42,361 nucleotides of DNA from the NCBI RefSeq assembly GCF_006345805.1, contig NW_021835144.1, forward strand, positions 1 through 42,361. The letters are read 5' to 3'. The stretch is from Octopus sinensis. Its lineage: Eukaryota. The notes below the pieces were generated by a model. It did no database searches, had not been told where the DNA came from, and saw nothing but the letters and a program-made list of their open reading frames with translations. Every line of letters starts with the position of its first letter. The stretch's first letter is position 1. The position numbers were made by a program, and so were the translations under genes. Below, one piece after another: positions 15,760 to 38,173 of the stretch.

Positions 15760-16945
<1,186 letters not shown>

Positions 16946-30367: not shown

Positions 30368-30748
30368 TTTTATTATATGTTTGGCTTTTGTTTTGTGTTT
30401 GTGCAAGCTGACTCCAAATCTCACCCAGAGACAAGTTAGAAGTTCACAAGTTGGTATTATGACTAGAGTTCCATGTATTTGATATTGCACAAGATAATGT
30501 TCTAGAGAATGTCTGTGAAAACATAAGAAAATTAAATGTTTGTTTTAAAAGCAATTTGATTATAAGATGATAGTATGATGTTAAGATTACAGTAAAAGGT
30601 GATTATTATTATTATTATCATCATTATTATTATTATTATTATTATTGTTATTATTATTATTATTACTATTATTATTATTATTATTATTTTATTATTATTA
30701 TCATTATTATTATTACTATTACTATTACTATTACTATTATTAATATTA

Positions 30749-31402
<654 letters not shown>

Positions 31403-31427
31403 ATTATTATTATTATTATTATCTTTA

Positions 31428-31469
<42 letters not shown>

Positions 31470-31694
31470 GAAATATTAAAATTGCTAAGTCTCTCTAAAG
31501 GAGACTATGGCAGCGGTACTGGATATTAATAGTTATCGCCAAGCTAATATGGTAGTCCATAAATATAAGACTAAAGCTGCCGTTGATTAGCTCCAAGAGG
31601 CCATCGCCTCTAGCTAGCTATATGACACACGAACCTGTATCCATTATAACCTTCGAACAGGGGAGGTCAGCCGCTTCCCCTTGCTGGTCAGACA

Positions 31695-31737
31695 TCTGCA
31701 GACATGTTTCAGGATATTTGCCCTTTATCAATGCAGA
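31695..31737 (-). ncRNA. Minimal type-I hammerhead ribozyme, inverted second copy
   Basis: Reverse complement reads TCTGCA-TTGATAA-AGGG caaata TCCT-GAA-ACATGT-C-TGCAGA; the stem II change gives a G-U pair and the other change is in the loop. Confidence 0.83.
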
Positions 31738-32077
31738 GTAGCCAGACCCAGCAGGCGTCGCTACTAACCGTCTGTTCGAAGGATTATTTACCTAATTTCA
31801 GTGGTTATAATGGACACAGGTTCGTGTGTCATATAGCTAGCTAGAGGCGATGGCCTCTTGGAGGTAATCAACGGCAGCTTTAGTCTTATATTTATGGACT
31901 ACCATATTAGCTTGGCGATAACTATTAATATCCAGTACCGCTGCCGTAGTCTCCTTTAGAGAGACTTAGAAACTTTAATATTTCTATTTTTGAAAACCAG
32001 TGGATGTATGCCACTGAAATTAGGTAAATTATCCTTCGAACAGACGGTTAGTAGCGACGCCTGCTGGGTCTGGCTAC

Positions 32078-32120
32078 TCTGCATTGATAAAGGGAAAATA
32101 CCCTGAAACATGTCTGCAGA
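32078..32120 (+). ncRNA. Minimal type-I hammerhead ribozyme, U3:A8 core variant
   Basis: TCTGCA-TTGATAA-AGGG aaaata CCCT-GAA-ACATGT-C-TGCAGA: 6-bp stem I, 4-bp stem II, palindromic stem III, GUC site (cut after 32114). Confidence 0.85.
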
Positions 32121-32289
32121 TGTCTGACCAGCAAGGGGAAGCGGCTGACCTCCCCTGTTCGAAGGTTATAATGGACACAGGTTCGTGTGTCATATAGCTA
32201 GCTAGAGGCGATGGCCTCTTGGAGGTAATCAACGGCAGCTTTAGTCTTATATTTATGGACTACCATATTAGCTTGGCGATAACTATAAA

Positions 32290-32332
<43 letters not shown>

Positions 32333-32845
32333 GAGTGAGAGAGCAGTTCATGCCATCAAAGTGACACTGGGGTAAAATATACGAAGCCCAATATACCCAT
32401 GCAACTACCCGTCTGATAAGGGTCACCAGGCACATGCATCACCCATGTGTGCGCGACATGGTGATCTTATATCAAGATAAACAGCACATGACCTTGCAGG
32501 TGGGGCCCAGTTAGAATTTTCTTCAGGTTGAGTAGCCCATCCCGCTCAAAGGTCCCTGAATAAGGTTGTTTAAGGATATTGAAAGAACCACCCATGTTTC
32601 CAGAGGTGAATTATTCAAACCCCAAGAATCCCTCTCAACACATGGCTATGATGCTCCCCCATTATCGTCAGCCACTAAGGGACTTGCTCACTGGTTATGG
32701 TCAAACAACTGACAAGCAAATATGTGGTATTGAGCAGAATATTTGCTGTAGCCCATCTTATACCAAAACAAAACAATGTACATGATAACACTTCCAATCA
32801 GTTAAGATCAGAAGCCATGAGAGCACTGCCTGGTACTGCATCAGG

Positions 32846-32848
<3 letters not shown>
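32333..32848. mobile_element. Unclassified ~515-bp non-coding insertion in (TTA)n
   Basis: Complex sequence sharply bounded by TTA repeats on both sides; no convincing ORF. Confidence 0.45.
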
Positions 32849-32897
<49 letters not shown>

Positions 32898-32952
32898 TAT
32901 TATCATTATTATATTATCATTATCATTATTATTATTATCATCATTATTATTA

Positions 32953-32990
<38 letters not shown>

Positions 32991-33018
32991 GTTATTATTA
33001 TTATCATGGCTATTTTTA

Positions 33019-33170
33019 TGCTGAGTTCGAATTCTGCAGCGGTCGACTTTGCCGTTCATTCCTTTCGGGGTCGATAAAAATAAGTACCAGATGAGATGAG
33101 AACTGGGGTTTATGGTATTGAATTAGCCCCTTACCCGAAATGGTTGGCCCTGGGCCAAAATTTCCAAATA
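33019..33170 (+). mobile_element. 5'-truncated SINE family A
   Basis: ctgagttcgaattc..ggtcgactttgccgttcattcctttcggggtcgataaaaataagtaccag. Confidence 0.75.
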
Positions 33171-33557
33171 TTATTATTGTTGTTGTTGTTGCTGCTGCTG
33201 CTGCTGCTGCTGTTCCTGTCGTTGTTATAAGAATGCAGAATGCATAACAGAAAAGGGCGTATGCTTTTAATTTCTCATATACATACATACATACATACAT
33301 ACATACATACATACATACATACATACATACATACATCATATATATATATATTTATATATATATATATATATATATAATGTATGCAAATATGCCGAGATAC
33401 GTGTTCGTATGCATGCGTGTTATGTACACACACACACACTCATACATATATATATATATATGTATTCATATATCTATATAAATATACATATATATGTATA
33501 TGTGTATATATTTATATATGCACACCCAAACATGCATATATATCTACAAAATATATA

Positions 33558-37828: not shown

Positions 37829-38173
<345 letters not shown>

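Follow-up and report, generated by a model that had tools for sequence, protein, structure and literature searches.

The window analysed here, the whole 42,361-nt stretch of Octopus sinensis contig NW_021835144.1, carries at 31468-32292 an insertion in which a minus-strand arm of 337 nt stands head to head with a plus-strand arm of 490 nt, inside an (ATT)n tract. The left part of this target is an (ATT)n/(GTT)n microsatellite (31289-31467) and the right part an (ATT)n microsatellite (32293-32332), which hides any target-site duplication. Repeat finding and self-BLAST pair 31523-31804 with 32011-32292 as an inverted repeat of 282 nt with 6 mismatches, and 31468-31651 with 31803-31986 as a second one of 184 nt with 5 mismatches; 31803-31931 recurs directly at 32164-32292 (129 nt, 1 mismatch), at a spacing of 361. 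The plus arm comprises 1.36 units of this 361-bp period. No ORF is present in 31468-32292, where no stop-free stretch in any of the six frames exceeds 69 codons, and the unit lacks the RT and GIY-YIG ORF of an autonomous Penelope-like element (PLE). An earlier note, made from the window alone, had described an inverted and partially tandem layout with few mismatches, a 361-bp period and no ORF, and these repeats confirm it.

We numbered the unit q1-361 along plus-strand positions 31932-32292. In these coordinates the minus arm is q80-361 joined to q1-55 and the plus arm is q233-361 joined to q1-361. The first part of the minus arm (q80-361; 31523-31804, minus strand), delimited by repeat and unit alignment, is an inverted, 5'-truncated copy; the second (q1-55; 31468-31522, minus strand) is a "tail" of the 56-nt class with two small predicted hairpins, which brings the arm to its end at the distal initiation site T, and ends at q55-57 recur throughout the family. 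The arms share a 2-nt overlap at the inversion junction (31803-31804). From there the plus strand carries a partial tandem copy without a hammerhead (q233-361; 31803-31931), whose 5' end sits at the base of the rod described below, a region of frequent stops, and then the full unit (q1-361; 31932-32292), which ends at the proximal initiation site E. At sites that are neither diagnostic nor CpG, the arms differ at 4 of 205 positions (2%), against a mean of 4.9% over 56 inversions. The copy is thus younger than average, yet not fresh, and its description as young and recently mobile holds in a relative sense only: it is only moderately young.

The insertion lies in a 22-kb intron of a calmodulin-like gene with plus-strand exons at approximately 15830-15975 and 37917-38159. 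This gene is divergent and single-copy in the assembly, with paralogues at 72-77%. The assembly (2.72 Gb, about 30 large contigs, microsatellite-rich) contains no allelic or empty site, the host exon being single-copy and the left flank another repeat. Positions 30815-31285 are a separate fixed-length repeat of 470 bp (2,705 candidates, 86-88%) with (ATT)n on both sides, and 32335-32845 are a very high-copy repeat of about 500 bp, bounded by (ATT)n, with a summed contig depth far above that of the 361-bp unit.

Hammerhead motif, rod and sister families

The full unit carries a type I hammerhead motif at 32079-32119 on the plus strand. Helix I is formed by 32079-32083/32115-32119 and helix II, spanning 32091-32104, by 32091-32094/32101-32104 (AGGG/CCCT); the core TTGATAA occupies 32084-32090, GAAA 32105-32108 and the palindromic helix III, AC-AT-GT, 32108-32113, while C17 is 32114, after which cleavage is predicted, at the same site as in the earlier note. 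Core positions 3-9 with GAAA, the 3:8 pair, a GUC cut triplet and helices I to III are all found, with U3 (32084) and A8 (32089) replacing C3:G8. The numbering and the role of the 3:8 pair are consistent with the hammerhead papers. A second type I hammerhead lies on the minus strand at 31696-31736 (U3:A8 core 31731-31725, predicted cut after C31701) and differs by one helix II change, from G-C to G-U. Helix III, with 2 bp closed by a palindromic loop of 2 nt, is of the dimer type, and a monomer assay of 3:8 mutants, as had been proposed, would therefore probably give little cleavage. Helix II is short (4 bp), and in the main subfamily A10.1-U11.1 stands in place of the usual G-C; G10.1-C11.1 is listed as highly conserved in the PLE literature (PMC4209133). 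An Rfam scan of 30500-33500 gave no hammerhead family match up to E 10, probably because of the variant core and the 2-nt loop.

The motif sits at the tip of a plus-strand rod (32033-32165) with a predicted energy of -62.1 kcal/mol (z -6.37), which none of 200 shuffles equalled; the reverse strand folds at -51.3 (z -4.04). In the centroid structure helices I and II are formed, the core is open and helix III is unformed. The compensated U3:A8 hammerhead at the tip of a longer rod, as first described from the window, is accordingly present as a motif with a predicted catalytic fold. The U3:A8 core itself is not new: about 1,300 U3-A8 motifs, found via the Cercyon PLE, were published for Schistosoma mansoni (Cervera and de la Pena 2014, PMC4209133). 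The same core also occurs in the present genome's dominant autonomous PLE.

The copy-number check advised in the earlier note showed the unit to be multicopy and not single-copy, with 2,641 first-look genome candidates (best others 97% among the 40 scored) and at least 1,553 exact matches to an 18-mer family marker, against 0 for the control. A hammerhead pattern that left positions 3 and 8 free had 454 exact genome matches against 0 for its reversed control, so the motif is not a product of chance; among the 100 matches listed from these 454, T3 occurred in 99 and A8 in all 100. In 337 pieces from 119 loci we found 125 full hammerheads, 122 with U3:A8 and 3 with C3:A8, having helix III palindromes AC-AT-GT (91), AC-TA-GT (13) and AC-GC-GT (2). 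One subfamily (L002, L135, L141) swaps helix I and helix II pairs on both sides and keeps U3:A8; the helices covary as those of a hammerhead do. Shared substitutions in the rod and helices keep plus-strand pairing in 15 of 19 cases (15:4) and private ones in 97 of 272 (97:175; Fisher p 3e-4, in a test whose cells are not independent and some of whose sites are CpG), while only 5 of 19 shared substitutions keep pairing if the minus strand is taken as the RNA. The compensatory changes across subfamilies and sister families fit selection on the hammerhead fold.

The unit has the make-up of a non-LTR retrozyme: it is non-coding, multicopy, a few hundred bp long and equipped with a type I hammerhead. 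Its GC content is 43.8%. Tandem arrays, a further point raised from the window, do exist in the family as head-to-tail repeats with at least two hammerheads (L010, L035, L036, L037, L038, L200), but they are rare: two cleavage sites occur in only 1 of 107 sampled arms, and the arrays observed are short, reaching no more than about 3 units.

Two sister families, B (period about 352 bp, 2,110 candidates) and C (3,220 candidates), are 64-72% identical to the unit over the hammerhead and the 3' part. Most of their copies carry canonical C3:G8, with 4-nt palindromic or near-palindromic loops, and since these families are homologous to the unit the 3:8 swap is natural covariation among homologues. 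The family B rod follows the design of that in the unit with a different sequence (z -7.0); the one stretch of family C that was folded is not outstanding (z -0.7). C3:A8 in L065 was considered as a family-level intermediate and rejected, most family C copies being C3:G8.

An RNA-templated insertion pattern with two start sites

For an end census, 76 loci were picked in chromosome order via the 18-mer. The 3' ends of 107 of 126 arms fall at q345-361 (E) or q48-66 (T), 56 nt apart, and the 5' ends are variable. Half of the sampled loci have no inversion, and solo arms end at T in 16 cases, at E in 14 and elsewhere in 4. Among 82 loci there are 43 head-to-head junctions, 33 of them with two canonical ends (the 10 with a non-canonical end were left out), and 31 of these 33 have one E and one T end, that is, exactly one tail (p 6.5e-8 vs independent choice). 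The same rule held in all 10 classifiable inversions of family B and in all 3 that could be classified among 6 candidates of the autonomous element. Targets are mostly (TA)n or (ATT)n, with duplications of 8-12 bp where the flank is unique (L142, L147, L164, L166, L008, L017). Two fixed 3' ends, an optional tail, 5' truncation, inverted and partial-tandem insertions and AT-rich targets are the hallmarks of Penelope elements, and the Penelope-type insertion suggested by the window copy is borne out across the family. The pattern is that of RNA-templated, target-primed insertion from two start sites.

The 5' ends bear on the form of the template. At the cleavage site (q182-186) lie 0 of the 124 arm 5' ends from the 76 loci, with 2.1 expected, and coverage runs across it, with 74 arms at q193 and 66 still at q178; the 8 ends observed in q181-190 are not a significant excess (P 0.07). 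The rod-base region q215-234 holds 22 arm 5' ends vs 11.5 expected. Since 5' ends do not pile up at the cut site, which reverse transcriptase reads through, the template is narrowed to a circle or an uncut multimer, and a linear cleaved monomer is not supported as the main template.

Inversion arms are discordant in 36 of 1,195 comparisons at subfamily sites (3.0%), which matches tandem units (26 of 888, 2.9%) and is far below random loci (36%); both arms therefore derive from one template or source. Two random templates, unrelated RNAs paired via the palindrome, were rejected on the same agreement at subfamily sites. Fold-back copying of one arm from the cDNA of the other misfits the window copy, in which neither arm is contained in the other. 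Taken with the arms being of the same subfamily, the near-absolute one-tail rule argues for one complex that uses two start sites asymmetrically, and so constrains the mechanism of PLE integration.

The tails of the unit's own family, A, and of family B (L083-L107) open with a common TACCGCT-R-C-Y-GT motif, at 31936-31947 in the window (1,966 pattern matches vs 185 for the control), a candidate protein-binding site between the two start sites. At L002:1855-2120 one tandem unit departs from the adjacent one at 12 of the 40 subfamily sites, every one of them in q118-206; this unit is a chimera of two subfamilies, possibly made by a template switch.

A candidate autonomous helper

A GIY-YIG search of the genome gave 5,029 candidates, and the 150 that were scored are dominated by a 781-aa RT plus GIY-YIG ORF. 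In Pfam its GIY-YIG match is over the cut-off and its RVT_1 match (E 1e-6) just under it, and it has a DKG motif and a CX4CX2C linker. A CX2-5CxxC linker is tied to Neptune, and Nematis also has a Zn-finger-like motif in its linker (PMC8557442); on these motifs we provisionally regard the dominant autonomous element as Neptune-like. Its pLTR contains TTGATAA...GAAACATGT, a U3:A8 hammerhead with the ACATGT palindrome of the unit, and a pattern for this hammerhead has 683 matches, with T3 in 99 of the 100 listed and A8 in all listed. The tail is about 35 nt, vs 56 nt in the unit, and the targets are (TA)n.

The likeness between this element and the unit is limited to the hammerhead core and palindrome. 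Linkage to RT plus GIY-YIG ORFs, for which the earlier note had advised a search, was not found: in 44 GIY-YIG loci, taken from the 150 scored of 5,029, no pLTR is homologous to the unit outside the ribozyme, and tblastn with two PLE proteins gave no match in the 38 family loci L001-L038 (loci L128-L217 lay outside this test). The few unit matches in GIY-YIG loci come from copies of family A, B or C that inserted separately next to them. The helper candidate is unproven because flanking homology is lacking, and the common ACATGT could be chance because a 2-nt palindromic loop has only four forms. That the helper is a PLE of the Neptune-like RT plus GIY-YIG type is nevertheless likely.

A predicted duplex between the unit RNA and the helper RNA has an energy of -6.2 kcal/mol, and one between family B and the helper 0.2. 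Retrozyme and helper RNAs might conceivably form a heterodimeric hammerhead, cut in trans and so bring the non-coding RNA to an RT dimer that assigns each target strand one start site; we consider this improbable, and propose it because the U3:A8 core and the ACAUGU palindrome are common to both RNAs and inversions carry a single tail.

In other PLE families of the genome the core is C3:G8 or a candidate U3:A8. The 3' regions of L052, L053 and L057 and the minus strand at L153:2956-2998 contain short motifs resembling hammerheads, in which a TTGAAAA or ATGAATA core is accompanied by GAAACCGGT; they suggest further 3:8 variants, U3:A8 and possibly A3:U8. The dominant PLE (L069:674-2110, plus strand; L073, L079) has a separate 479-aa ORF upstream, which is in a different frame from the RT-EN ORF and overlaps it by about 78 nt; this upstream ORF has only a weak, probably spurious Pfam match, and a two-ORF layout is unusual for EN+ PLEs. 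Wide-spaced hammerhead pairs were considered as a possible autonomous element and rejected, these being duplications, separate insertions or an unrelated coding insertion. The last of these (L031:2170-5800) is internally repeated, has CCHC-like motifs and lies between two family copies; one ORF scanned in it has no Pfam match.

Relation to known elements and origin of the copy

Every component described here has precedent, and the unit represents no new system but a new family of a known type of mobile element. Mussel retrozymes are 350-390 bp long and are expressed as circles (Cervera and de la Pena 2020, PMC7229834), and animal retrozymes have been argued to derive from PLE pLTRs in a study in which one of nine dimers cleaved (Li et al. 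2026, 10.64898/2026.07.22.740005). Like the metazoan non-LTR retrozymes of these reports, the unit is ORF-less, within or near the 350-390 bp of the mussel elements, below 45% GC and equipped with a type I hammerhead, and it is dispersed as monomers, dimers and short multimers for which PLE dependence has been proposed. Unlike them, as they are described there, its core is U3:A8, its loop III is a 2-nt palindrome of the dimer type, and its insertions are mostly sub-dimer, inverted and tail-bearing. The window copy lacks the two consecutive hammerhead-bearing units by which Li et al. define an "active" element, which concerns the copy and not the family.

PLE hammerheads are reported to have a palindromic helix III, dimer dependence and low activity, and to fit a circle model (PMC4209133); their cleavage as dimers has been reviewed (PMC6765202). 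The unit resembles these pLTR hammerheads, that of Cercyon included, in being type I with a palindromic 15.2-16.2/loop 3 and predicted dimer activity, in U3-A8 covariation and in opposite-strand pairs 100-700 bp apart. It differs from those in the same account (PMC4209133) as a self-repeating 361-bp non-coding sequence built on a 133-nt rod, with a 4-bp helix II starting from A10.1-U11.1.

Insertions of EN+ PLEs have an inverted and partial-tandem layout, often with a tail at one end only (Craig et al. 2021, PMC8557442). Work on Poseidon PAc placed an RT start site on either side of the tail and showed AT-rich (ATT) DNA being cut, and extended, on both strands; the hammerhead there is assisted by protein and is dispensable for insertion in vitro (Frangieh et al. 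2024, PMC11167929). The family shares with these elements the partial tandem, the inverted 5'-truncated copy, the tail at one end, microsatellite targets, two RT start sites and a hammerhead site that is read through; it departs from the EN+ PLEs of these two papers in its 56-nt tail (30-40 typical) and in having no ORF. The one-tail rule was counted here (31/33, 10/10, 3/3), whereas PAc in vitro was reported with no apparent strand difference in start site (PMC11167929). Non-autonomous Chlamys elements such as MRC1 (PMC8557442) are likewise PLE derivatives with head-to-tail insertions, but they generally have 3' sequence in common with an autonomous family, and no such homology was found for the unit. 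Full-text literature searches, whose coverage excludes most subscription journals and Repbase, turned up no paper on cephalopod hammerheads or retrozymes; published supplementary motif tables may already list the family.

In the reading we favour, with a probability of about 0.85, a high-copy 361-bp repeat that has a U3:A8 hammerhead motif and no ORF gave rise to the locus as a daughter insertion, and this repeat is likely a Penelope-like retrozyme that is non-autonomous and depends on a Neptune-type RT/GIY-YIG protein acting in trans. Tandem source loci, which are rare (L010, L035, L036), would be transcribed, and two hammerheads would pair via the palindromic helix III, probably with protein assistance, and cut. 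The monomer may then quite plausibly be re-ligated into a circle of about 361 nt; more tentatively, an uncut multimeric transcript could serve as the template. The PLE protein, probably a dimer, would nick both target strands, and the two 3' ends would prime at different sites, E and T, of a single RNA or of sibling RNAs from one source. The two cDNAs would run beyond unit length or stall at the rod, and the joining of their 5' ends by microhomology would yield an inversion, a partial tandem and one tail. The earlier note had proposed that tandem loci of the family could yield RNA of about 361 nt, linear or circular. The window copy, which has a single hammerhead on each strand and whose read-through transcript would fold into a long hairpin, is a daughter and no such source, and it is a dead end unless paired in trans. 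Contigs from four sequencing runs, only guessed to be RNA, cover most of the unit and cannot show transcription or circles.

Against this reading stands L210, an older inversion with an unpaired C3:A8 core in both arms (L210:1102-1144 and 1286-1328), which suggests that a broken core may still be copied, by mobilisation of an inactive ribozyme, or else gene conversion. It is one of several points that agree with a rather unlikely alternative, in which the mobile family is the same and the hammerhead is inactive in vivo, the rod and motif being kept as a protein-binding or inactive fold and a few tandem master loci supplying the copies through read-through transcripts that stay uncut. The missing 5'-end peak at the cleavage site and A10.1-U11.1 agree with it as well, as do the independence of PLE insertion from hammerhead activity in vitro (PMC11167929), the 8 of 9 Xenopus retrozyme dimers reported without cleavage (10.64898/2026.07.22.740005) and the Naiads, described as making inverted insertions without canonical hammerheads (PMC8557442). 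Re-ligation into a circle would, however, likewise erase a 5' peak, and compensatory changes have kept the core, helix I, helix II and the palindrome across subfamilies and sister families.

It is very improbable that the copies are only the 5'-truncated 3' ends, or solo pLTRs, of an undetected autonomous PLE. Their insertion hallmarks are all those of PLE pLTRs, and the GIY-YIG survey scored only a part of its candidates; yet the arms run from q361 to q1 and then through q57-361 again with the 361-bp period, so that what follows the tail is the unit itself and no ORF, a sister subfamily has an array of about 7 units, and the PLE proteins had no tblastn match in L001-L038. A DNA-level repeat, either a MITE-like foldback or a satellite unit with an incidental hammerhead, would suit the inverted arms and the tandem arrays of sister families and is largely excluded, since the loci without inversion, the variable 5' ends, the unequal inversion ends and the shared substitutions that favour G-U pairs on one strand only together indicate an RNA template. 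An assembly fold-back or chimeric-read artefact, for which the unplaced 42-kb contig might speak, is hardly credible given the mismatches between the arms (6 in 282 and 5 in 184 positions) and the dozens of chromosomal loci that show this layout bounded by the same pair of ends, in some cases with target duplications of 10-12 bp.

With homologous families in one genome that have C3:G8 or U3:A8 and differing helix III palindromes, the unit and its relatives are a test bed, a ready-made panel on which the 3:8 pair and dimer specificity can be examined; the family is also useful for probing how asymmetric the twin priming of PLEs is. Family B (L083-L107, L229-L232; C3:G8, about 352 bp) looks younger, at 95-98% among its top matches, and one of its subfamilies forms the arrays of about 7 units; it is the better substrate for circle detection.
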